A program made the translations under genes and the position numbers. DNA of 27,750 nucleotides, from the UHGV virus genome UHGV-0085994; one strand, 5' to 3'. A model generated the notes under the pieces. That model saw only the letters and a list, made by a program, of their open reading frames with translations, was not told where the DNA came from and did no database searches. Source of the stretch: a virus. This document shows, piece after piece, positions 2,549 through 21,211 of the stretch. Position 1 is the stretch's first letter, and every line of letters starts with the position of its first letter.

Positions 2549-3400
2549 ATGATAAATTATGTCTACGGCGAACAACTGTACCAGGAGTTCGTCAGCTTCA
2601 GGGATCTCTTTCTAAAAAAAGCTGTTGCACGCGCCCAACACGTTGATACAGCCAGCGACGGTCGTCCTGTACGCCCGGTTGTCGTTCTACCGTTCAAAGA
2701 AACTGACAGCATTCAGGCTGAAATTGATAAATGGACTTTAATGGCGCGGGAACTGGAACAGTACCCAGACCTCAATATCCCAAAGACTATTTTATATCCA
2801 GTGCCTAACATCCTTCGCGGTGTGCGCAAGGTTACAACTTATCAGACAGAAGCTGTGAACAGCGTCAATATGACCGCTGGCCGTATTATTCATCTGATTG
2901 ATAAGGACATTCGCATCCAAAAAAGCGCGGGGATCAATGAGCACAGTGCGAAATACATAGAGAACCTGGAAGCAACAAAAGAGCTAATGAGGCAGTACCC
3001 GGAGGATGAAAAATTCCGTATGCGTGTACACGGCTTTAGCGAAACAATGCTGCGCGTCCACTACATCTCCAGTAGCCCTAACTACAATGATGGTAAATCA
3101 GTTAGTTACCATGTACCGCTGTGTGGCGTGTTTATCTGCGATGAAACTCTCCGTGATGGAATCATCATCAACGGTGAATTCGAGAAAGCAAAATTTAGCC
3201 TTTATGACTCTATAGAACCGATCATCTGCGACCGCTGGCCGCAGGCAAAAATATATCGCCTGGCAGATATTGAAAATGTAAAAAAACAAATTGCCATCAC
3301 TCGCGAAGAGAAAAAGGTTAAGTCAGCCGCATCAGTTACGCGCAGCCGTAAAACCAAGAAGGGGCAGCCAGTAAACGACAACCCCGAAAGCGCGCAATAA
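2549..3400 (+). CDS. c1: C1 repressor of lysogeny (P1 immC)
   Basis: 283 aa, the length of P1 C1; N-terminus MINYVYGEQLYQEF; preceded by GGAGGA Shine-Dalgarno and an operator cluster; cognate 17-bp operators occur throughout the window. Confidence 0.9.
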   Translation: MINYVYGEQLYQEFVSFRDLFLKKAVARAQHVDTASDGRPVRPVVVLPFKETDSIQAEIDKWTLMARELEQYPDLNIPKTILYPVPNILRGVRKVTTYQTEAVNSVNMTAGRIIHLIDKDIRIQKSAGINEHSAKYIENLEATKELMRQYPEDEKFRMRVHGFSETMLRVHYISSSPNYNDGKSVSYHVPLCGVFICDETLRDGIIINGEFEKAKFSLYDSIEPIICDRWPQAKIYRLADIENVKKQIAITREEKKVKSAASVTRSRKTKKGQPVNDNPESAQ

Positions 3401-10513: not shown

Positions 10514-12076
10514 ATGAAAATGACAAGTATTCAACAACGTGCAGAGCTTCATCGTCAAATCTGGCAAATTGCTAACGATGTCAGGGGTTCGGTCGATGGA
10601 TGGGATTTTAAGCAATACGTTCTGGGCGCACTTTTCTACCGTTTTATCAGCGAAAATTTTTCCAGCTATATTGAAGCCGGTGATGACAGTATCTGTTATG
10701 CGAAACTGGATGACAGCGTAATTACTGATGACATTAAAGACGATGCCATCAAAACCAAAGGTTACTTCATCTACCCAAGTCAGCTTTTCTGCAACGTAGC
10801 TGCGAAAGCAAATACCAATGACAGACTGAATGCAGATTTAAACAGTATCTTCGTTGCTATCGAAAGTTCTGCTTACGGTTATCCTTCAGAAGCTGACATC
10901 AAAGGTTTGTTTGCTGATTTCGATACCACCAGTAACCGCCTGGGTAACACCGTTAAAGATAAAAATGCCCGCCTGGCTGCGGTTCTGAAAGGGGTTGAAG
11001 GGTTAAAACTTGGTGACTTCAACGAACATCAGATTGACCTGTTCGGTGATGCCTATGAGTTCCTGATTTCTAACTATGCGGCAAATGCCGGTAAGTCAGG
11101 CGGTGAGTTCTTTACACCGCAGCACGTCTCCAAGCTGATTGCACAACTGGCTATGCACGGGCAGACCAGCGTTAACAAAATCTACGACCCGGCAGCGGGT
11201 TCCGGCTCACTGTTGTTGCAGGCGAAAAAACAGTTTGATAACCACATCATCGAAGAAGGCTTTTTCGGTCAGGAAATCAACCATACGACCTATAACCTGG
11301 CGCGTATGAACATGTTTTTGCACAACATCAACTACGACAAGTTTGATATCAAGCTGGGCAATACGCTGACTGAACCGCACTTCAGAGATGAAAAACCGTT
11401 TGATGCCATCGTTTCTAACCCGCCGTATTCGGTGAAATGGATTGGCAGCGATGACCCGACGCTGATTAACGATGAGCGTTTTGCCCCGGCTGGCGTTCTG
11501 GCCCCCAAATCCAAAGCTGACTTTGCGTTTGTATTACATGCGCTGAACTATCTTTCGGCCAAAGGTCGTGCTGCGATTGTCTGCTTCCCGGGTATTTTTT
11601 ACCGTGGCGGCGCAGAGCAGAAAATCCGTCAGTATCTGGTCGATAATAACTATGTCGAAACCGTAATTTCACTGGCTCCGAACCTGTTCTTTGGCACCAC
11701 CATTGCCGTAAACATTCTGGTTCTGTCCAAACATAAAACGGATACCAACGTTCAGTTTATTGATGCCAGCGAACTGTTCAAAAAAGAGACCAACAACAAT
11801 ATCCTGACCGATGCCCATATCGAACAAATTATGCAGGTATTCACCAGCAAGGAAGATGTTGCTCATCTGGCAAAATCTGTCGCGTTTGAAGCCGTTGTAG
11901 CGAATGACTATAACCTGTCGGTGAGCAGCTATGTAGAATCGAAAGATAACCGCGAAATTATCGATATTGCTGAGCTGAATGCGGAACTGAAAACCACGGT
12001 CAGCAAAATCGACCAGTTGCGCAAAGATATTGATGCGATTGTGGCTGAAATTGAAGGCTGCGAGGTACAGAAATGA
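10514..12076 (+). CDS. hsdM: type I restriction-modification system, DNA methyltransferase subunit HsdM (type IC, EcoR124-like)
   Basis: 520 aa; N6-adenine methyltransferase motif NPPY(SVKW); followed by hsdS with 4-bp overlap. Confidence 0.95.
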
Positions 12077-13221
12077 GCGAGTTGAGTTATCTGGAAAAAT
12101 TGCTGGATGGAGTTAAGGTTGAGTGGAAAACACTAGAGAAAGTGCTTAAACGAACTAAAGGCACAAAAATAACCGCTGGGCAGATGAAAGCTCTTCACAA
12201 AGATAATGCGCCGCTTAAAATTTTTGCAGGGGGAAAAACAGTAGCCTTTGTTGACTTTAAAGATATTCCAGAGAAAGATATTAATAGAGAGCCATCGATC
12301 ATTGTTAAATCCAGAGGTATTATCGAATTCGAGTATTACGATAAACCATTCTCTCACAAAAATGAGATGTGGTCATATCACTCAAATAATGATGCGATAA
12401 GCATAAAGTATATTTATTACTTCCTAAAAATAAATGAAGGATATTTCCAGAAAATTGGGGGTAAAATGCAAATGCCACAAATTGCAACTCCTGATACAGA
12501 TAAGTTTGAAGTTCCAATCCCTTGCCCGGATAATCCGGAAAAATCCCTTGCCATCCAGTCTGAAATCGTTCGGATTCTGGATAAATTTACTGCAGTTACC
12601 GCTGAGCTTACCGCTGAGCTTAACATGCGTAAAAAACAGTACAACTACTATCGCGACCAGTTACTGAATCTTGAGGGCAGGGAAAATACTCGAGAAATGA
12701 GGATAGGTGATATTTATGATTTTCAGTATGGAACAGGCAATACAATTCCTAAATCTGGAGGGCAATATCCTGTTTATGGTAGCAACGGGATTGTAGGCTC
12801 CCATGACAAATATAACAGCGAAGACTCGCCTGTTATTGGTCATATAGGTGCTTACGCAGGAATCGTTAACTGGGGCCAAGGTAAGCATTTTGTTACATAC
12901 AACGGAGTTATTTGTAGGCACAAATCGAAGGAAGTTCTTCAAAAATACGCCTACTATTTATTACTTTTACAAGATTTCGGTTCAAAATCTAATAGTGCAT
13001 CACAGCCTTTTGTTTCATATAACATATTAAATGCTCCTATTGTTTTGGTTCCCCCTTTACAAGAGCAAGCTCGTATCGTCGCAATACTCGATAAATTCGA
13101 CACACTGACCAACTCCATCACCGAAGGTCTCCCGCGTGAAATCGAGTTGCGCCAGAAACAATACGAGTACTATCGTGATTTACTGTTCAGTTTCCCAAAA
13201 CCTGAAACAGCCAGTAATTAA
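12073..13221 (+). CDS. hsdS: type I R-M specificity subunit HsdS (two target-recognition domains; central TAELTAEL repeat)
   Basis: 382 aa; conserved repeats LDKF..(Q/K)QYxYYRD after each TRD; central TAEL x2 as in EcoR124I-type subunits. Confidence 0.95.
12598..12621 (+). repeat. 12-bp tandem direct repeat ACCGCTGAGCTT x2 encoding TAEL-TAEL in hsdS
   Basis: Directly visible; in the EcoR124 family the copy number of this repeat sets the spacer length of the recognition sequence. Confidence 0.75.
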
Positions 13222-13342
13222 TTGAGCATTTTTACAGACCGGACCACCTTAACATCCGGTCAGTATATAGACTATTTTCTACACGACGGAAGTCGCCCTT
13301 AACTCCCTTCCGGCCCTTGCCAGACGGCACAAAGGATGCGCT

Positions 13343-16300
13343 ATGACTCATCAAACACACACCATTGCTGAATCCAATAACTTTATCGTCCTTGATAAGT
13401 ACATCAAAGCTGAGCAAACAAGCGACAGCTACCAGAGCGAATCGGACCTGGAACGTGAACTGATTCAGGACCTGCGGAATCAGGGCTATGAATTTATATC
13501 CGTAAAATCACAGTCGGCGATGCTAGCCAATGTTCGGGAACAGCTTCAGAACCTCAATGGTGTGGTGTTTAATGACAGCGAGTGGCGGCGTTTCACGGAG
13601 CAGTATCTGGATAACCCGAGCGATGGCATTCTGGATAAGACCCGTAAAATCCATATCGACTATATTTGCGACTTTATTTTTGATGACGAGCGTCTTGAGA
13701 ACATCTATTTGATAGATAAAAAGAATCTCATGCGCAATAAGGTGCAGATTATCCAGCAGTTTGAACAGACGGGTTCTCATGCTAACCGTTATGACGTCAC
13801 GATCCTGGTTAATGGTTTACCGCTGGTGCAAATCGAACTAAAAAAACGCGGGGTGGCGATTCGTGAGGCTTTCAACCAGATACATCGTTACAGTAAAGAG
13901 AGTTTTAACAGCGAAAATTCCCTGTTTAAGTATCTGCAGCTGTTCGTCATTTCCAACGGCACTGATACCCGTTATTTTGCCAACACCACAAAGCGCGATA
14001 AAAACAGTTTTGACTTCACCATGAACTGGGCTAAATCAGACAATACACTGATTAAAGACCTCAAAGACTTTACCGCTACCTTTTTCCAGAAACATACTCT
14101 GCTTAATGTTCTGGTGAACTACAGCGTTTTTGACAGCAGTCAGACACTACTGGTAATGCGACCGTACCAGATTGCCGCCACCGAGCGCATTCTGTGGAAA
14201 ATTAAGAGTTCCTTTACAGCGAAGAACTGGTCAAAACCGGAAAGCGGTGGGTATATCTGGCACACTACCGGTTCTGGTAAAACCCTCACCAGCTTTAAAG
14301 CCGCGCGTCTGGCAACAGAGCTGGACTTTATTGATAAAGTCTTCTTTGTGGTCGACAGGAAAGACCTCGATTACCAGACCATGAAGGAATATCAGCGTTT
14401 TTCGCCAGACAGCGTCAACGGCTCGGAAAATACCGCAGGTCTTAAACGAAATCTGGATAAGGACGATAACAAAATTATCGTCACTACTATTCAGAAACTC
14501 AATAACCTGATGAAAGCAGAAAGCGATCTGCCTGTATATAATCAGCAAGTGGTGTTTATATTTGATGAATGCCACCGCAGCCAGTTTGGAGAAGCGCAGA
14601 AAAACCTGAAGAAGAAATTCAAACGCTATTATCAGTTTGGTTTTACCGGCACCCCTATTTTCCCGGAAAACGCCTTAGGCTCAGAAACAACCGCCAGCGT
14701 ATTTGGTCGTGAATTGCATTCGTATGTAATTACCGATGCGATTCGTGACGAAAAAGTGCTCAAATTCAAGGTGGACTACAACGATGTGCGGCCACAGTTT
14801 AAGTCTTTAGAGACAGAAACTGACGAGAAAAAACTGAGTGCGGCTGAAAATCAGCAGGCGTTTCTTCATCCCATGCGTATTCAGGAAATCACGCAATATA
14901 TTCTGAATAATTTCCGCCAGAAAACCCACCGTACCTTCCCTGGCTCAAAAGGTTTTAATGCTATGTTGGCAGTGAGCAGCGTGGATGCCGCGAAAGCCTA
15001 TTATGCGACGTTTAAACGGTTACAAGAAGAAGCCGCTAATAAATCGGCTACCTATAAACCGCTGCGTATTGCGACAATCTTCTCCTTTGCCGCCAATGAA
15101 GAACAAAATGCCATTGGTGAAATTTCCGATGAAACTTTTGATACCAGCGCAATGGACAGCAGTGCTAAAGAGTTTCTGGACGCTGCAATTCGTGAATATA
15201 ACAGCCATTTTAAAACTAACTTTAGCACCGACAGTAACGGTTTTCAGAACTACTATCGTGATTTAGCCCAGCGGGTTAAAAATCAGGATATCGATCTGCT
15301 AATTGTCGTGGGGATGTTTTTAACCGGCTTCGATGCTCCAACATTAAACACGCTATTCGTCGATAAAAACTTGCGTTTTCACGGCCTGATGCAGGCATTC
15401 TCCCGCACCAACCGCATTTATGACGCGACTAAAACCTTCGGTAATATTGTCACGTTCCGGGATCTGGAACGCTCAACCATTGATGCCATAACGCTGTTTG
15501 GTGACAAAAATACCAAAAATGTGGTTTTAGAAAAGAGTTATGCAGAGTATATGGAAGGCTTTACTGATGCTGCCACTGGTGAAGCTAAACGCGGCTTCAT
15601 GACAGTAGTTTCAGAACTGGAACAACGGTTCCCTGACCCTACCAGTATTGAAAGTGAAAAAGAGAAGAAAGACTTCGTTAAACTGTTTGGCGAATACCTG
15701 CGTGCCGAGAACATCCTGCAAAACTATGATGAATTTGCCACGCTAAAAGCCCTGCAACAAATCGATCTTAGCGATCCTGTTGCGGTAGAAAAATTCAAAG
15801 CAGAACATTATGTGGATAATGAAAAGTTCGCTGAATTGCAAACAATTCGTCTCCCTGCTGATCGCAAGATTCAGGATTATCGTTCTGCCTATAACGATAT
15901 TCGCGACTGGCAGCGCCGTGAGAAAGAAGCTGAGAAAAAAGAGAAATCAACCACTGACTGGGATGACGTAGTTTTTGAGGTCGATTTGCTGAAGTCTCAG
16001 GAAATAAACCTGGATTATATCCTTGGACTGATTTTCGAACACAATAGACAAAATAAAGGCAAGGGCGAAATGATCGAAGAGGTCAAACGCTTAATTCGTT
16101 CAAGCCTGGGGAACCGGGCGAAAGAGGGCCTGGTGGTCGATTTTATTCAGCAAACGAACCTGGATGATTTACCAGACAAAGCCAGTATCATTGAGGCATT
16201 CTTTACGTTTGCTCAACGCGAACAGCAACGTGAAGCAGAAGCATTGATAAAAGAAGAAAATCTCAATGAAGATGCAGCAAAACGCTATATTCGCACGTCT

Positions 16301-16459
16301 TTAAAACGCGAATACGCCACCGAAAATGGCACAGAATTAAACGAAACATTACCAAAACTTAGTCCGTTGAATCCGCAATATAAAACGAAAAAACAGGCAG
16401 TTTTCCAGAAAATCGTCTCGTTTATTGAGAAGTTTAAAGGCGTAGGCGGAAAAATATAG
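13343..16459 (+). CDS. hsdR: type I R-M restriction endonuclease/translocase subunit HsdR
   Basis: 1038 aa; helicase motif I TGSGKT and DECH box; gene order M-S-R typical of type IC. Confidence 0.95.
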
Positions 16460-16538
16460 CCCAATTCGTATTTTTCTTGCGGGTTCTTAATTAAACCCGC
16501 AAGAGACCGTGGGGTTCCAAATGGCTAATATACTCCCC

Positions 16539-16625
16539 TTACCCATGCGCGACAATGCTGCCAAAAGTGATAGAGAACAGCCAGAAATAGATCGCGGCCA
16601 TAATGATTTTGAATGCCGTGTTCAT
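16539..16625 (-). CDS. 28-aa hydrophobic peptide (MNTAFKIIMAAIYFWLFSITFGSIVAHG), candidate small membrane protein or type I toxin-like peptide
   Basis: ATG with AGGAG Shine-Dalgarno at 7-nt spacing; single predicted transmembrane helix; C1 operator about 85 bp upstream; below the ORF-track length cutoff. Confidence 0.4.
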   Translation of the reverse strand: MNTAFKIIMAAIYFWLFSITFGSIVAHG

Positions 16626-16653
16626 ATTTTCAGCTCCTGTGATTGATTGGATA

Positions 16654-16684
16654 CATGCCGCGCCTTGCGGCATGTTTTTATTTT
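16654..16684 (+). terminator. rho-independent terminator (plus strand), likely end of the hsdR transcript
   Basis: CATGCCGC-loop-GCGGCATG hairpin followed by TTTTTATTTT. Confidence 0.5.
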
Positions 16685-16707
16685 CACTTTCTCTGTTTTA
16701 AAAATCA

Positions 16708-16724
16708 AGATTTATTAGAGCAAT
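16708..16724 (-). promoter_or_regulatory. C1 operator, 16/17 match
   Basis: Plus strand AGATTTATTAGAGCAAT; lies between the HAD-like gene stop and the small peptide gene. Confidence 0.65.
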
Positions 16725-17230
16725 TATTGTTGATGGAGAAGCGCGTTTTCATACTCCCTGACCATTAACGTAAGTACGCCGTGACTCCTGAAAACACGCG
16801 CCACTTCAATCTTATCTTCCAGCGCGAACGCAATTTTACTTAGACCAATTTTCTTCAGGAGATCAATCTTTGCTGGACCGTCATTTCTGTCATCGGTGGC
16901 AGGACGCATAGATAGCAAAGGCTCAGCCCCATTTGTTACGTGCTTACGCAACCAGGCTCGTGTTTTATCCCTGGCTATCTCACAGCGCCCGGTTACAAAC
17001 CAGAGGGTGTAAATGCCGGACAACTGGCGCACCATATCAATAACTGGAGTGATGGGAGCATCAGTGTCACAGGCAAGGTTAAACTCGTTCCAGTGCTCTG
17101 TTAATGCACCTTTGCCAGGTGGTGGAAGTAAATGCAGCCTGTCTTCCGTTGCCTCTGATATCGTCCCATCAATATCTACTATGACGATGTACGGACGTTC
17201 CTGGTGTGCGTGTTTATTGAAAATACTCAA
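16724..17230 (-). CDS. HAD-superfamily phosphatase-like protein (DxDGT motif; 5'(3')-deoxyribonucleotidase or polynucleotide 3'-phosphatase-like)
   Basis: 168 aa; N-terminal VIVDIDGTIS matches HAD motif I; TTG start with GAGGAGG Shine-Dalgarno. Confidence 0.6.
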   Translation of the reverse strand: MSIFNKHAHQERPYIVIVDIDGTISEATEDRLHLLPPPGKGALTEHWNEFNLACDTDAPITPVIDMVRQLSGIYTLWFVTGRCEIARDKTRAWLRKHVTNGAEPLLSMRPATDDRNDGPAKIDLLKKIGLSKIAFALEDKIEVARVFRSHGVLTLMVREYENALLHQQ

Positions 17231-17302
17231 ATGCCCTCCTCATTGGACGAAAAAAATGCTGGTGGGAGCACTCCACCAGCATTAAAAGTGACACTGTAAC
17301 TA

Positions 17303-18565
17303 TCAGCGAACGTAAATAGTGCCGCCGTTCTCTTTTTCCCATGCATCGCTACGTGCATAGCAAACATCGAGAAGTCTTCTTGCCGCAGTTTCCTCTAAAC
17401 CCAATTCGACAACCAACTGCTCATGACGGCGGGTAACCACATCAAACAGGGTATGCAGCCCTTTAGTTGCCAGATCATCAATGAATTCCGGTTCGAACGG
17501 CAGCTCTGCATCTGCCAACATAACCTCTTGCGCCCACTCAACTCGACGGACCAGTTCCGGGCGGCGGCTTTCCATCTCTTTACAGATCAATTCATGGAAG
17601 AACTCTACCCAACCTTCCGGCTGAAACTCGCGGAAAATTGCCAACGGCTGGAAGTTTGGCATCAACCATTCGTTGATTCGGATATCAATGGCATAGCCCA
17701 TGTCGCAGCAGAACTGATAAGCAAAGTCCAGCTTAGAAACGATATAAGGACGCTCGTTATTGAACTCTTTAGGCGATGAGATCCCATAAGCCAGGAGGCG
17801 CGGGAAGAAGGAGATTTGCCCTAACGTCGGATGAAGTTTGCTTGCAGGGAAACGGCGCTCAGTAATGCCATACATTTCCTTCTTGAGCGTCGCAAATTTG
17901 GCATTCTCATTAACCAGCGCGGTAACCTCTGCTTTTTTATTAGCAAATGCCACGCGCGCTTCGCTTGCATCTTTAATAGTTTTTTTGAGCTGTTGGTTAA
18001 GGTCGGCGACCTGCTTACGCAGTTCCTGTCGCTCGCTTTTAGCTTTGTTATAGCGTTTCTCAAGGTTAAAAGGATCAAGTTTCATGATCTCTTTATATTG
18101 AGATTTTAGCGTTGAAATCTGTGAGTTCCGCAGTTCAACCATCGCGGTCATTTCATTGAGTTTTGTTTCCAGCTCAATGCTTATACGTTCGGCATTATCA
18201 GCACGCTGGTTGGCGTCATGCGTCGCATCGTCGATCGCGTCCTGTTGCTGGCGTTTCAAATGTTCAATTTGCAGCTGAAGCTCTTCAATTTCTTTACCCT
18301 TCAGACCGAGATCCAACTGCATATTTTCAGCTGCATCTACCAGGGAGTTATGGCTATCAGCTTCTGCGTTATAAACATCAATAAGCTGTGCGTGAAGCAT
18401 CTCCGCTGACTGAACCGCATTATCAAAAAAACGTGCTGTGAGGTCATCACAACTAACGCGGCGTTGCGCAGCCCGGATGTTCTGGATAATGGCCGGGATA
18501 CCGGCATTCAGGACATCAGGGATAGATACATTTTCGATTGATTGGTTTTGTGCTGAAGTGCTCAT
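17303..18565 (-). CDS. hypothetical protein: N-terminal coiled coil (about 230 aa) plus uncharacterised C-terminal globular domain
   Basis: 420 aa; heptad-like Q/E/K/L-rich N-terminal half; no recognisable catalytic motif in the C-terminal half. Confidence 0.65.
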   Translation of the reverse strand: MSTSAQNQSIENVSIPDVLNAGIPAIIQNIRAAQRRVSCDDLTARFFDNAVQSAEMLHAQLIDVYNAEADSHNSLVDAAENMQLDLGLKGKEIEELQLQIEHLKRQQQDAIDDATHDANQRADNAERISIELETKLNEMTAMVELRNSQISTLKSQYKEIMKLDPFNLEKRYNKAKSERQELRKQVADLNQQLKKTIKDASEARVAFANKKAEVTALVNENAKFATLKKEMYGITERRFPASKLHPTLGQISFFPRLLAYGISSPKEFNNERPYIVSKLDFAYQFCCDMGYAIDIRINEWLMPNFQPLAIFREFQPEGWVEFFHELICKEMESRRPELVRRVEWAQEVMLADAELPFEPEFIDDLATKGLHTLFDVVTRRHEQLVVELGLEETAARRLLDVCYARSDAWEKENGGTIYVR

Positions 18566-18566
18566 T

Positions 18567-18785
18567 TCAAAGTTCCGTATTAGCTTGTGCTTCGGTCATT
18601 TTTCCTAAGTATGAAGGTGGAAGGACTACGCAATTTGTATCCAGTCCCTCACCTATGGCAGCCTGTAAAATTCTGGCTAAGGTGAGTCTCTTGTTGCGAT
18701 ACCTGGTGATGACATGCCTGATACCGCCGGTCGGCGTAACAAAGGCGATCAGCCAGTAGTGATATTTCCGTCGGAATGGCCACAT
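18567..18785 (-). CDS. small hypothetical protein (72 aa) translationally coupled to the 420-aa ORF
   Basis: ORF ends at the 420-aa start; begins 15 bp from a C1 operator. Confidence 0.3.
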   Translation of the reverse strand: MWPFRRKYHYWLIAFVTPTGGIRHVITRYRNKRLTLARILQAAIGEGLDTNCVVLPPSYLGKMTEAQANTEL

Positions 18786-18799
18786 AGTGCACCTTATAG

Positions 18800-18816
18800 A
18801 TTGCTCTAATAAAAAA
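18800..18816 (+). promoter_or_regulatory. C1 operator-like site (14/17)
   Basis: ATTGCTCTAATAAAAAA. Confidence 0.5.
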
Positions 18817-18836
18817 CGTGATGAGTGTACATCACG
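18817..18836. terminator. bidirectional hairpin terminator between two minus-strand operons
   Basis: CGTGATG-AGTGTA-CATCACG flanked by an A-run upstream and a T-run downstream. Confidence 0.45.
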
Positions 18837-18848
18837 TTTTAAAAATAT

Positions 18849-18865
18849 GGAACTATTAGAGCAAT
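18849..18865 (-). promoter_or_regulatory. C1 operator-like site (13/17), inverted relative to 18800-18816
   Basis: Plus strand GGAACTATTAGAGCAAT. Confidence 0.4.
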
Positions 18866-18866
18866 A

Positions 18867-19568
18867 TTATTCTGATTCTCGCTCAAAAAATGAGCTGATA
18901 AGGGGAAGCCAATCCTCTGACACTTCGCGAGGTCGCGGTTTGCCGTGGAAAAAGATTATTCGGCAGTCTTTTGGTAATGCCCCATTCCCCCTGGAGTAAC
19001 GCGCGCTCGCATATTTCGAACCAGGTTCCACAACATCGGCCTTGTAACTTACAAACCATCCCGGATACAGATCCTGAAATGCTGGTGTATCATCACCCAT
19101 AACCTTCCGCAAAAACCCCTGCTCACCCCAGCATTCAGTAGTAACACAACGAGCAATCCAACCTTCCGGATCTTGCCAGAATGCACTCCAGATATGCGCT
19201 TTTACACTATTTGGTATCCACAGGGCACCGCTGCCACGATATTGTGGATGGTAAAAATCCCTAAGCATGGTGAAGCTGGTTGGTGGATTCTCTAGGATTG
19301 GGCGTATATCACCGGCAATAACCGTGTCCAAATCCAGATAGAACAGATCATCGGTTATATCCGGTCGGAACAACTCGATTTTCGCCCACCAGCCACGGCA
19401 CTTTTGCCACTGGTTGATCAATGGGACAACTTTGACGCCAGGTACATGTAAACGCTTCAGGTCTGTCAGGCAAATAATTTCATAGCCTTTTGGCAGTTGA
19501 TTAACCAGCCACTGCACATCGGAAGCGTTATAGTCACCACCAGAGCGAAGAACTAAAGCAATCTTCAT
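18867..19568 (-). CDS. hypothetical protein with DxD-like motif (possible nucleotide-sugar transferase fold), coupled to the phosphatase gene
   Basis: 233 aa; YLDLDTV motif; start overlaps the ppp stop. Confidence 0.6.
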
Positions 19569-20257
19569 GCTGCACCATCACCTTTCACTTTCATCAATGT
19601 CAGGTTTCCGCAAAATACGGCACCTGTGTCGATATAATGCTGATTCCAGAATGTCTTCGGGCTTTTCACCGGAGTGTGACCAAAGATAAAACGATCTGCG
19701 CCCGAAATTTCGCCACCAATATCATCCATCGAATCACTGATACGCTCGCGCGCCCAGACAACGTTGAAAAGCGGCACCTCCTTACCGAATTGGTATTCAT
19801 TATCCGGATAGTCGGCATGGGCTATAACGATAGTTTCTTGCCCGGTGTTCAACTCAATGATATAGGGCAGACGCTTTACCAGCTCCACCAGCGCCCAGGC
19901 TAATATTTCCTGATCAGTGTCCAGCATGAAGAACCATTGTCCGCCATTCATTAGCCAGTTATTCACGTTGCCATCTGGACTTAACGCATCAATCATCAGC
20001 CGCTCATGGTTCCCCATCACTGCCCTGAACCAGGGCATCTGCAATAGTTCCAGACATTCGACATTTTCAGTACCGCGATCGATAAGGTCTCCGAACGATA
20101 TCAGTAAATCCTGCGCCGGGTCAAAATCCACACGATGGAGTTCGGACATCAGTCTGGTGTAGCAACCATGCAGATCACCAACAACCCAGACATTCCTGTA
20201 TTTGGTACCGTCGATACGGTGATAAATTGTGGGTGCCATCATGTATTCTTCAGCCAT
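19565..20257 (-). CDS. ppp: serine/threonine protein phosphatase, lambda-PP/PrpA family metallophosphatase
   Basis: 230 aa; motifs GDLHGC, GDLIDRG, GNHE; symbol by analogy with what I recall as P1 ppp. Confidence 0.85.
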
Positions 20258-20391
20258 TCTTTAAGAGTCATCTGCGGAATACCTCCCATTTTCCCGCATG
20301 AAACAACGTCAATCTGTTCACGCGCAGACTGGAATAACAAAGGCAGGTGACTTAGATTTTTTGGCGTGCCGCCGGAGTGAACGCGTGGTTC

Positions 20392-21211
20392 GGCACTGTT
20401 GCAAAGTTAGCGATGAGGCAGCCTTTTGTCTTATTCAAAGGCCTTACATTTCAAAAACTCTGCTTACCAGGCGCATTTCGCCCAGGGGATCACCATAATA
20501 AAATGCTGAGGCCTGGCCTTTGCGTAGTGCTCGCATCACCTCAATACCTTTGATGGTGGCGTAAGCCGTCTTCATGGATTTAAATCCCAGCGTGGCGCCG
20601 ATTATCCGTTTCAGTTTGCCATGATCGCATTCAATCACGTTGTTCCGGTACTTAATCTGTCGGTGTTCAACGTCAGACGGGCACCGGCCTTCGCGTTTGA
20701 GCAGAGCAAGCGCGCGACCATAGGCGGGCGCTTTATCCGTGTTGATGAATCGCGGGATCTGCCACTTCTTCACGTTGTTGAGGATTTTACCCAGAAACCG
20801 GTATGCAGCTTTGCTGTTACGACGGGAGGAGAGATAAAAATCGACAGTGCGGCCCCGGCTGTCGACGGCCCGGTACAGATACGCCCAGCGGCCATTGACC
20901 TTCACGTAGGTTTCATCCATGTGCCACGGGCAAAGATCGGAAGGGTTACGCCAGTACCAGCGCAGCCGTTTTTCCATTTCAGGCGCATAACGCTGAACCC
21001 AGCGGTAAATCGTGGAGTGATCGACATTCACTCCGCGTTCAGCCAGCATCTCCTGCAGCTCACGGTAACTGATGCCGTATTTGCAGTACCAGCGTACGGC
21101 CCACAGAATGATGTCACGCTGAAAATGCCGGCCTTTGAATGGGTTCATGTGCAGCTCCATCAGCAAAAGGGGATGATAAGTTTATCACCACCGACTATTT
21201 GCAACAGTGCC
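20392..21211 (-). mobile_element. IS26 (IS6 family), complete 820-bp element
   Basis: 14-bp terminal inverted repeats GGCACTGTTGCAAA at 20392-20405 and 21198-21211; encodes Tnp26; no 8-bp target-site duplication in the flanks. Confidence 0.95.
20444..21148 (-). CDS. tnpA: IS26 transposase Tnp26
   Basis: 234 aa from MNPFKGRHFQRDIILWAVRWY...; matches IS26 transposase as recalled. Confidence 0.95.
   Translation of the reverse strand: MNPFKGRHFQRDIILWAVRWYCKYGISYRELQEMLAERGVNVDHSTIYRWVQRYAPEMEKRLRWYWRNPSDLCPWHMDETYVKVNGRWAYLYRAVDSRGRTVDFYLSSRRNSKAAYRFLGKILNNVKKWQIPRFINTDKAPAYGRALALLKREGRCPSDVEHRQIKYRNNVIECDHGKLKRIIGATLGFKSMKTAYATIKGIEVMRALRKGQASAFYYGDPLGEMRLVSRVFEM

Follow-up and report, generated by a model that had tools for sequence, protein, structure and literature searches.

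Results

Genes and regulatory elements of the locus

The window analysed here is a 27,750-nucleotide stretch of the virus genome UHGV-0085994, and the locus under study occupies its positions 16460-18866. Four minus-strand open reading frames (ORFs) had been claimed for this region in a preliminary description, and all of them were present at the coordinates given (Table 1). Taken in order, the block would comprise the operators Op86a and Op86b, the promoter PpmgR, the pmgR-pmgS pair and a terminator, then pap, and lastly Op88, the promoter PpmgT, a leader with a hairpin and the gene of a small membrane peptide. The gene that adjoins the block is pmgQ, and not ppp, which had been named as the neighbour.

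Table 1. Coordinates of the features found in the locus and at its junction with the hsd genes.
Feature	Position	Strand	Remarks
C1 operator Op86a (OpmgRa)	18849..18865	-	1 base off the P1 feature annotated in AF234172
Hairpin and T run after the pmgQ stop, between Op86a and Op86b	18816..18840	-	sequence reading, RNAfold
C1 operator Op86b (OpmgRb)	18800..18816	+	identical to P1; inverted relative to Op86a
pmgR, 72 aa	18567..18785	-	72/72 identical to P1 PmgR; phrog_3177
pmgS, 420 aa	17303..18565	-	419/420 identical to P1 PmgS
Intrinsic terminator after pmgS	17255..17283	-	11-bp stem, then T7
pap, 168 aa	16724..17230	-	160/168 identical to P1 Pap
C1 operator Op88 (OpmgT)	16708..16724	-	identical to P1
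Leader hairpin of the Op88-controlled transcript	16653..16675	-	followed by conserved AATCAATCA and GGAG ribosome-binding site
28-aa hydrophobic peptide gene	16539..16625	-	MNTAFKIIMAAIYFWLFSITFGSIVAHG; AGGAG ribosome-binding site
End of P1 homology (about 16535) and GC-rich inverted repeat (16476-16503) before the convergent hsdR stop	16476..16535	.

Between positions 16535 and 19700 the window showed 98.1% DNA identity to P1, and in megablast searches the block matched P1, P7 and other Punavirus records at 97.6-98.6% identity. The encoded proteins were identical to those of P1 at 100% (PmgR), 99.8% (PmgS) and 95% (Pap) of their residues. A scan of genome contigs for related loci returned three loci only, from Escherichia and Pantoea. 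The block had been regarded as uncharacterised cargo in a variable region, whereas these protein identities place it in the P1 backbone. The variable region of P1-like phage-plasmids extends from pmgT to humD, downstream of Op88, and pmgR and pmgS belong to a set of 21 'extremely conserved' genes of these elements (PMC9603915); in the window, the variable region begins only past the peptide gene. The comparison with P1 backbone proteins that the preliminary description had proposed as a check returned full-length matches of high identity, of which PmgR alone has a tested phenotype. The block can be identified as the catalogued P1 genes pmgR, pmgS and pap with their C1 operators, and as such it is already known. 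A conserved P1 early block, carried by a P1-like phage-plasmid, is the best explanation of the locus, with a probability of about 0.9.

C1 operators, promoters and transcription units

The three C1 operator motifs that had been claimed were present and correspond to Op86a, Op86b and Op88 of P1, and the P1 record annotates these operators and the promoters at positions matching the window. A scan with the query ATTGCTCTAATAAATTT, in which up to three mismatches were allowed, gave seven matches in the window compared with 0.24 expected, and this number was reached in 0/100 shuffles. Op88 (one mismatch) and Op86b (three mismatches) were among these matches; the Op86a motif has four mismatches to the consensus, yet differs from the annotated P1 operator at a single base. 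Both Op86a and Op88 overlap -35 hexamers of predicted promoters, that of PpmgR (TTGCTC) in the first case and those of P1pmgT and P2pmgT in the second; the -10 elements of the two pmgT promoters are located at 16695-16700 and 16680-16685. By analogy with P1, C1 bound to these operators would block both promoters in the lysogen, and C1 inactivation would cause both units to fire early. Since the genes appear to be governed by C1 operators, they should stay silent in the lysogen and be switched on early upon induction, an expectation of the preliminary description that the P1-annotated Op86a/b and Op88 support; from the sequence identity with P1, C1 control is presumed for this element as well. 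The genes of the pmgR/pmgS/pap region are without mention in the DksA transcriptome paper. Elsewhere in the window, a candidate c1 gene of 283 aa is located at 2549-3400.

The arrangement as a single four-gene operon, which had been assumed, does not hold: the 420-aa gene is followed by a terminator ahead of the 168-aa gene, and the phosphatase gene is set apart from the peptide gene by Op88, which has predicted promoters of its own. The terminator after pmgS is kept in a Cronobacter locus (L011) with a compensatory G-C to A-T change. Because pap is located behind this terminator, its expression probably relies on read-through and is lower. The hairpin that follows the pmgQ stop is terminator-like and may act on the upstream ppp-pmgQ transcript; according to the P1 promoter annotation, its 5' arm is overlapped by the predicted -10 hexamer of PpmgR (TAAAAC, 18836-18841).

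The pmgR-pmgS pair

In P1, pmgR is an essential gene, the deletion of which leads to tails and incomplete heads that remain unjoined and can be complemented in trans (PMC9024508). This published work shows that joined, complete virions require PmgR. The gap between the pmgR stop and the pmgS ATG is 1 nt, and PmgS would be translationally coupled to pmgR. Homologues of pmgR are found directly upstream of PmgS homologues, even where PmgS identity is only 24-53%. The small ORF upstream of a distant PmgS homologue (P0050) proved unrelated to PmgR, and P0050 used as a query gave no related loci in viral contigs. Deletion of pmgS causes no plaquing defect (PMC9024508 supplement), and both pmgS and pap are non-essential by CRISPRi (PMC10695390). 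An obligate PmgR-PmgS complex is argued against by the fact that PmgS is non-essential while PmgR is essential.

The original annotation treats PmgR and PmgS as morphogenetic or structural proteins of the virion. The P1 label is 'putative morphogenetic function', the P7 proteins ShtA/ShtB are labelled 'sheath structure or assembly' and 'sheath contraction', and the PHROG label of PmgS is 'PmgS-like head morphogenesis'. Apart from this family label, the annotation agrees with the unjoined heads and tails of the pmgR deletion and with the neighbourhood in P1 and P7, which consists of other pmg genes and of tail and baseplate genes. However, plaquing is unimpaired by either deletion or knock-down of pmgS, and the virion-proteome paper nowhere names 'pmgS' in its main text and did not detect PmgR in virions. 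The promoter of the unit is of the sigma-70 type and under C1 control, no late promoter is annotated upstream, and PmgS is composed of a coiled coil and an HhH2 domain, with no recognisable virion fold. A virion role of this kind for PmgR and PmgS is considered rather unlikely.

PmgS begins with a helix, which is followed by a long coiled coil, by a beta/alpha domain at about residues 238-347 and, towards the C-terminus, by an (HhH)2 domain at about 355-412. The long coiled coil, already recognised in the preliminary description, is seen in the AlphaFold model as helices 42-160 and 166-232, broken at an invariant LDP (163-165). A structure search with the beta/alpha domain against PDB and BFVD gave no match. 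The C-terminal domain was modelled as a five-helix (HhH)2 fold (pLDDT 92.7, pTM 0.87), and the family profile matched the RAD51 NTD at E 2e-7 and αCTD at 2e-6. Among PmgS relatives, Pfam matches to HHH_5 and RNA_pol_A_CTD were obtained for 15/36 and 10/36, respectively; for P1-type PmgS itself, the Pfam search matched neither. By its predicted structure, the C-terminal end of PmgS is a (HhH)2 domain like those of the RAD51 NTD, RNAP αCTD and NusA-AR. In the P1 clade, the first hairpin of this domain (KGLHTLFD) is kept, the second is degenerate (VELGLEET vs family KGIGxKTA), and the net charge is -6 compared with a family median of 0; the domain does not have the canonical pair of G-h-G hairpins with a basic DNA-backbone-binding surface. 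Owing to this charge and to the degenerate second hairpin, DNA binding is doubtful for P1-clade PmgS.

No conserved acidic, His or Cys columns of catalytic type were found in PmgS across 72 homologues. An assignment to the PD-(D/E)xK nucleases through 'DIRINEW' was dropped, as the residues are not conserved in the family, and matches to TPR, SMC, Rad50 and LmuB in Pfam, NCBIfam and PADLOC were rejected as homology, being coiled-coil noise. PmgS is most readily seen as a putative non-enzymatic coiled-coil adaptor, the (HhH)2 module of which would have nucleic acid as its ligand or, with greater likelihood in the acidic P1 clade, another protein. In this capacity PmgS, which is dispensable in the laboratory, may assist the PmgR-dependent step or another early DNA transaction.

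Pap

The pap gene starts with TTG behind an AGGAGG ribosome-binding site, and the HAD DxDGT signature reported for its product was found as VDIDGT. Pap matched the Pfam family HAD_PNKP (PF25109) with 44.1 bits (E 3e-11; cut-off 27.6) and phrog_415 at 6e-56, and the Pap family profile matched Pnkp1 at 2.6e-6 and T4 Pnkp at 5e-6. Residues D19, D21, T23, R31, T80, R82, R115, D117, K121, E138 and D139 were invariant over the 11 homologues compared, down to 58% identity. Motifs I (D19-I-D21-G-T23), II (T80-G-R82), III (R115-x-D117...K121) and IV (E138-D139) align to those of T4 Pnkp and Pnkp1. With every catalytic motif kept, Pap is, as judged from its sequence, a stand-alone HAD phosphatase of the PNKP 3'-phosphatase type. 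The phosphatase domain fills all 168 aa; no P-loop 5'-kinase domain and no kinase family match were found, and the record label '3'-phosphatase, 5'-polynucleotide kinase' is an over-annotation. Pap would be active as a DxDxT phosphatase of the same type as the 3'-phosphatase of T4 Pnkp. Its most likely activity is the removal of 3'-phosphates, either from the ends of nucleic acids or from 3'-nucleotides, and it has no kinase or ligase partner.

The possibility that Pap instead serves the nucleotide pool, as a nucleotidase or 'acid phosphatase' with free mononucleotides and not nucleic-acid ends as its substrates, is raised by the P1 record name 'putative P1 acid phosphatase' and by a weak Pfam match to HAD class IIIB acid phosphatase (E 0.09). 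The T4 Pnkp phosphatase also acts on 3'-dNMPs. However, all significant matches of Pap were to PNKP-type phosphatase domains and the acid-phosphatase match lies far below threshold, and a nucleotide-pool role appears doubtful. Deletion of pap causes no plaquing defect (PMC9024508 supplement). The gene is missing in some P1-like lineages that keep pmgR-pmgS (L013/L014, L004), and therefore its link to the pair is loose.

The properties of PmgS and Pap also bear on the proposal of an early anti-host or anti-defence module. In such a module, RNA or DNA ends left by host nucleases, anticodon nucleases among them, would for example be repaired by Pap, perhaps with the aid of the lambda-phosphatase-like Ppp, and the role of PmgS would be to neutralise a host factor. 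Early expression under C1 control, the dispensability of pmgS and pap in laboratory hosts and the homology of Pap to the T4 Pnkp phosphatase domain are all consistent with such a module. T4 Pnkp counters the PrrC anticodon nuclease. Moreover, in phage-plasmids, distant PmgS homologues have DNA methylase, SSB and DarB-like genes as neighbours, within regions that are early or accessory. However, pmgS shares its unit with the morphogenesis gene pmgR, and a healing-and-sealing pathway of the Pnkp/Rnl type is incomplete because neither a kinase domain nor a ligase accompanies Pap. No known defence family was matched in PADLOC, which covers defence models only; the search gave a weak match of PmgS to the LmuB coiled-coil region (E 1e-4) and nothing for the other proteins. 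Published data also speak against it, in that antirestriction activity was unchanged by pmgS or pap deletion (PMC9024508). A module of this kind is regarded as unlikely. The opinion that the locus is not a lysogen-expressed defence was borne out, as PADLOC returned coiled-coil noise only. The term 'accessory module' suits pmgS and pap, which are dispensable (PMC9024508 supplement, PMC10695390), and does not suit pmgR, which is an essential morphogenesis gene (PMC9024508).

The Op88 unit and the hsd junction

The 28-aa gene is the first ORF of the Op88-controlled unit, and in P1 it is directly followed by pmgT. Its product is a single hydrophobic helix (Kyte-Doolittle 19-residue maximum 2.08). 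The ORF is kept in 107 contigs of IMG/VR, and diverged lineages keep the helix with different codons. This conservation marks it as a real membrane peptide gene, which appears to be controlled by a C1 operator. It is named 'membrane protein' in SJ46 and has no annotation in NC_005856. In the leader hairpin of the same transcript, pairing is kept with differing sequence in five lineages.

Normally, the Op88 unit would lead into the variable pmgT to lxr region. Past the peptide gene of the window, an EcoR124-type hsd system replaces P1 pmgT to lxr, and its insertion would have cut the unit to its first gene. The same hsdR junction was found in phi456, in vB_EcoM-673R5 and in about 23/107 IMG/VR contigs. 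The inverted repeat that separates the peptide gene from hsdR was not called as a terminator, because a T run is absent on both strands.

Two wider proposals are regarded as quite improbable: (a) PmgS is a host-directed adaptor, and (b) variable-region cargo is served by the Op88 unit as a conserved 'entry cassette'. Under (a), the acidic αCTD/NusA-AR-like domain would make contact with the transcription or recombination machinery of the host at an early stage of the lytic cycle, and a host-directed role, if true, would explain why PmgS is universally conserved yet dispensable in laboratory strains. Under (b), the operator-promoter, the covarying 5' hairpin, the AATCAATCA-GGAG start and the membrane peptide would drive whatever cargo occupies the P1 variable region, and the 28-aa peptide itself would serve the phage early, in a membrane function that has so far gone unrecognised.

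Discussion

The assignment of the locus to the P1 early block leaves it with little discovery value, since the P1 genome record has listed the locus, together with its operators and gene names, from 2004 onwards. Systematic per-gene deletion and CRISPRi data already exist for pmgR, pmgS and pap. What is added here is the description of Pap as phosphatase-only, the domain description of PmgS and the 28-aa peptide gene. For PmgS, the labels 'head morphogenesis' and 'sheath contraction' can give way to that of a coiled-coil protein ending in a RAD51-NTD/αCTD-like (HhH)2 domain; Pap, as a relative of T4 Pnkp, can be annotated as a phosphatase alone and not as a kinase; and the conserved membrane-peptide gene heading the Op88 unit is absent from the reference P1 record. 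These annotation gains concern three of the unknowns that remain in the workhorse phage P1.

Among known systems, P1 itself (AF234172 / NC_005856, 82152-84482) shares gene order, coordinates, operators, predicted promoters, terminator and leader with the window. The two differ at both sides of the block: past the 28-aa ORF, P1 continues with pmgT-pmgU-pmgV, whereas in the window the 3' end of hsdR, which is convergent and of the EcoR124 type, comes next, and on the upstream side pmgP to pmgL, unlike in P1, were removed by IS26. The block is also shared, within the range of identity given above, by P7 (as shtA-shtB-pap) and by the Punavirus members phi456, SJ46, RCS47 and JL22. The Punavirus records disagree on the gene names and on the guessed functions ('sheath', 'head morphogenesis', '3'-phosphatase, 5'-polynucleotide kinase'), none of which is based on experiment with these proteins.

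Pap has in common with T4 Pnkp (PDB 1LTQ, 5UJ0) and Capnocytophaga Pnkp1 (4XRP) the PF25109 HAD fold family and the DxDxT, T/S-G-R, R-x-D...K and acidic-pair motifs. Unlike these enzymes, it is a single domain of 168 aa without a P-loop kinase domain or an associated ligase, and the similarity is remote (family profile E about 1e-5 to 1e-6). The C-terminal domain of PmgS resembles the RAD51/RadA NTD, RNAP αCTD and NusA AR1/AR2; in PmgS, however, it follows a coiled coil of ~190 residues and an unmatched beta/alpha domain, and the acidic, degenerate P1-clade version is nearest in character to the NusA acidic repeats. As context only, the HsdR of the window is essentially identical to that of EcoR124 (2292 bits over 1-1038), and for the EcoDXXI and R124/3 hsd loci the P1 record notes that the flanking sequences match P1 at exactly this junction.

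Identity of the locus and its place in the backbone

The locus is the already known pmgR-pmgS-pap block of phage P1, together with Op86a, Op86b and Op88, operators of the P1 repressor C1. The four minus-strand ORFs and C1 operator motifs that the preliminary description had placed in 16460-18866 were confirmed by ORF calls, a consensus scan and comparison with Op86a. It had also called the module uncharacterised, which is contradicted by the identity of its products to the P1 proteins (PmgR 72/72, PmgS 419/420, Pap 160/168). The C1 operator consensus was strongly enriched in a scan of the window with three mismatches at most (7 matches against 0.24 expected). Op86b and Op88 are among these seven matches and do not differ from the P1 sequences, and the Op86a motif differs from that of P1 by a single base. 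In a megablast search against phage genomes, 19 Punavirus records matched 16300-19700 at 97.6-98.6% identity. The reference P1 record gives the order pmgQ; Op86a, PpmgR, Op86b; pmgR, pmgS, pap; Op88; pmgT, where Op88 is also OpmgT and is annotated with the promoters P1pmgT and P2pmgT. The gene set of phage P7 matches the block, and the genes are named shtA, shtB and pap there.

Features of the block and its surroundings (window coordinates)
Feature	Position	Strand	Remark
hsdM-hsdS-hsdR	10514-16459	+	type IC
28-aa hydrophobic ORF	16539-16625	-	AGGAG ribosome-binding site
Leader hairpin	16653-16675	-	between Op88 and first ORF
Op88	16708-16724		consensus match
pap, 168-aa ORF	16724-17230	-	TTG start, AGGAGG ribosome-binding site, motif VDIDGT
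Hairpin after pmgS	17255-17283		terminator
pmgS, 420-aa ORF	17303-18565	-	ATG 1 nt past stop of 72-aa ORF
pmgR, 72-aa ORF	18567-18785	-	72/72 identical to P1
Op86b	18800-18816		consensus match
Hairpin and T run	18816-18840	-	between inverted Op86a and Op86b
Op86a	18849-18865		compared with P1 Op86a
pmgQ, 233 aa	18867-19568	-	
IS26	~20391-21211		99.9% identical
Sit tape-measure/transglycosylase gene, 1055 aa	21185-24352		

These genes have been studied in P1 itself. Of the 29 P1 genes deleted in frame by Gonzales et al. 2022 (PMC9024508), which include pmgR, pmgS, pmgQ, ppp and pap, 24 gave normal plaquing and unaltered antirestriction activity. The deletion of pmgR led to tails and incomplete heads and was complemented in trans; PmgR was not among the proteins detected in virions, and HHpred returned no match for it (PMC9024508). 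In a CRISPRi survey, pmgS, pap, pmgQ, ppp and pmgT were all non-essential (PMC10695390). In a comparison of 77 P1-like phage-plasmids, the 21 genes termed "extremely conserved" include pmgR and pmgS, and the variable region is delimited as pmgT to humD (PMC9603915). Therefore, the block, which had been assigned to variable cargo, belongs to the core backbone, and the cargo hot-spot starts only on its downstream side. The overall reading of an early, C1-controlled module that is not a defence system, with two dispensable genes, is retained; its novelty and its assignment to variable cargo are not.

Transcription units and flanking regions

The four genes had been described as a single operon, but a terminator with an 11-bp stem and a run of seven T residues follows pmgS, and Op88 with its own predicted promoters separates pap from the 28-aa peptide gene. 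The pmgS terminator is kept, with a compensatory stem change, in a Cronobacter P1-like element, and pap starts 10 nt past its T run. According to the window sequence and the P1 annotation, both promoters are alike in build, with the -35 element TTGCTC within the operator and the -10 element TAAAAC. In the P1 record, the genes of the block have no annotated late promoter. The hairpin lying between the two Op86 operators resembles a terminator, presumably for the ppp-pmgQ transcript that arrives from upstream. Its 5' arm overlaps the predicted -10 element of pmgR and also contains the predicted start site, so the pmgR transcript would escape it.

Further upstream, IS26 truncates pmgP just before ppp and abuts the Sit gene, the product of which covers positions 1-1050 of a 1130-position PHROG profile. 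The genes pmgO to pmgL, Op83 and genes 26/25 are missing from this junction; ppp-pmgQ has thus lost the C1-controlled promoter that drives it in P1, and this rearranged element may be defective. PmgQ matches a PHROG family labelled glycosyltransferase (4e-127) and has no Pfam match, and its neighbour pmgO is labelled sialyltransferase in SJ46; these labels hint at a sugar-modification function of the ppp operon.

Downstream, P1 homology ends at ~16535, a few bases beyond the stop of the 28-aa ORF, where P1 continues with pmgT, whereas the window continues with the end of the convergent hsdR. The hsd locus, whose HsdR is essentially identical to that of EcoR124, stands between humD and the peptide gene in place of the P1 variable region pmgT to lxr. 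According to the P1 record itself, the sequences bordering the EcoDXXI and R124/3 hsd loci agree with P1 at the hsdR junction, and this junction is common to phi456 and about 23 of the 107 IMG/VR P1-like contigs. It also occurs in vB_EcoM-673R5 and many plasmids.

The peptide gene, PmgS and Pap

What follows on the functions of PmgS, Pap and the 28-aa peptide we infer from sequence and predicted structure. The 28-aa ORF, which starts at an ATG further upstream and reaches 44 aa in a mechanical ORF list, has no annotation in the reference P1 record; it is labelled membrane protein in SJ46 and hypothetical protein in phi456. P1, P7 and phi456 carry it with little or no change, and in IMG/VR a scan with a degenerate pattern picked it up in 107 P1-like contigs, with ATG in every case. 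A C1 operator with two mismatches or fewer lies 95-102 nt upstream in 103 of these (99 nt in 92). The Kyte-Doolittle 19-residue maximum is 2.08, and the diverged lineages L011 (Cronobacter), L013 (Salmonella) and L060 keep the hydrophobic helix through different codons and conservative replacements, with longer tails giving 46-53 aa. The leader hairpin (also at L011:6884-6910, L013:6403-6423 and, in a further locus, L005:10184-10211) varies in sequence and preserves its pairing across five lineages, with changes on both sides in 8 of 23 predicted pairs in an imperfect alignment. Downstream of it come a conserved AATCAATCA and the ribosome-binding site GGAG; the hairpin may serve to stabilise the 5' end of the mRNA or act in translation. 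The 28-aa ORF is a real gene for a putative membrane peptide, the first of an Op88-controlled unit leading into the variable region.

A word-indexed search with PmgS returned P1-like relatives only, plus one protein at 27% identity with a precomputed Pfam HHH_5 match. A full search with the PmgS profile matched 119 of 1.84 billion cluster representatives at E ≤ 1e-3 (83 at E ≤ 1e-10), most of them 360-470 aa long and aligned across most of the profile. In the full-length model (pLDDT 72), an N-terminal helix is followed by two long ones (42-160 and 166-232) with a break at an invariant L-D-P (163-165), then by a beta-rich domain and a helical end. For the beta/alpha domain (about 238-347), neither PDB nor BFVD gave a match. 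Columns conserved at 80% or more within residues 228-420 (G233, W300, P303, P336, L338, R341, W344, L365, G389, W409) include no catalytic-looking residues. The family profile matches the RAD51 NTD (E 2e-7) and αCTD (2e-6), and 15/36 relatives match HHH_5 and 10/36 RNA_pol_A_CTD; P1 PmgS itself matches neither. The second hairpin has degenerated in the P1 clade (VELGLEET instead of the family hKGIGxKTA), and the net charge of the C-terminal (HhH)2 domain is -6 there, compared with 0 for the family median. Here, protein binding like that of the NusA acidic repeats would be no less likely than DNA binding. A PmgR homologue lies directly upstream of PmgS even at 24-53% PmgS identity, and the small ORF before still more remote homologues is unrelated to PmgR. 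Small ORFs, DNA methylases, SSB, a DarB-like giant protein and ParM/StbA surround the distant homologues, in phage-plasmid early or accessory regions.

The pap gene travels with the block less strictly than pmgR and pmgS do, since some P1-like lineages retain these two without it (L013/L014 6264-6900; L004 11288-12600); in the Salmonella elements L013/L014, pmgS is followed directly by an Op88-type operator and the peptide gene. Pap matches Pfam HAD_PNKP (44.1 bits, cut-off 27.6) and phrog_415 (6e-56), and an 11-sequence family profile matches Pnkp1 (2.6e-6) and T4 Pnkp (5e-6 and 3.5e-5) in their phosphatase domains. The motif residues D19, D21, T23, R31, T80, R82, R115, D117, K121, E138 and D139 are invariant. 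We infer that Pap would be an active 3'-phosphatase with nucleic-acid ends or 3'-nucleotides as its substrates. Some records label it "3'-phosphatase, 5'-polynucleotide kinase", which is half wrong, because the 168-aa protein has no kinase domain; nor is a kinase or ligase partner evident. T4 Pnkp and RNA ligase act against the PrrC anticodon nuclease, and the lambda phosphatase has 2',3'-cyclic phosphodiesterase activity; by analogy with these systems, an end-healing role of Pap together with Ppp is conceivable.
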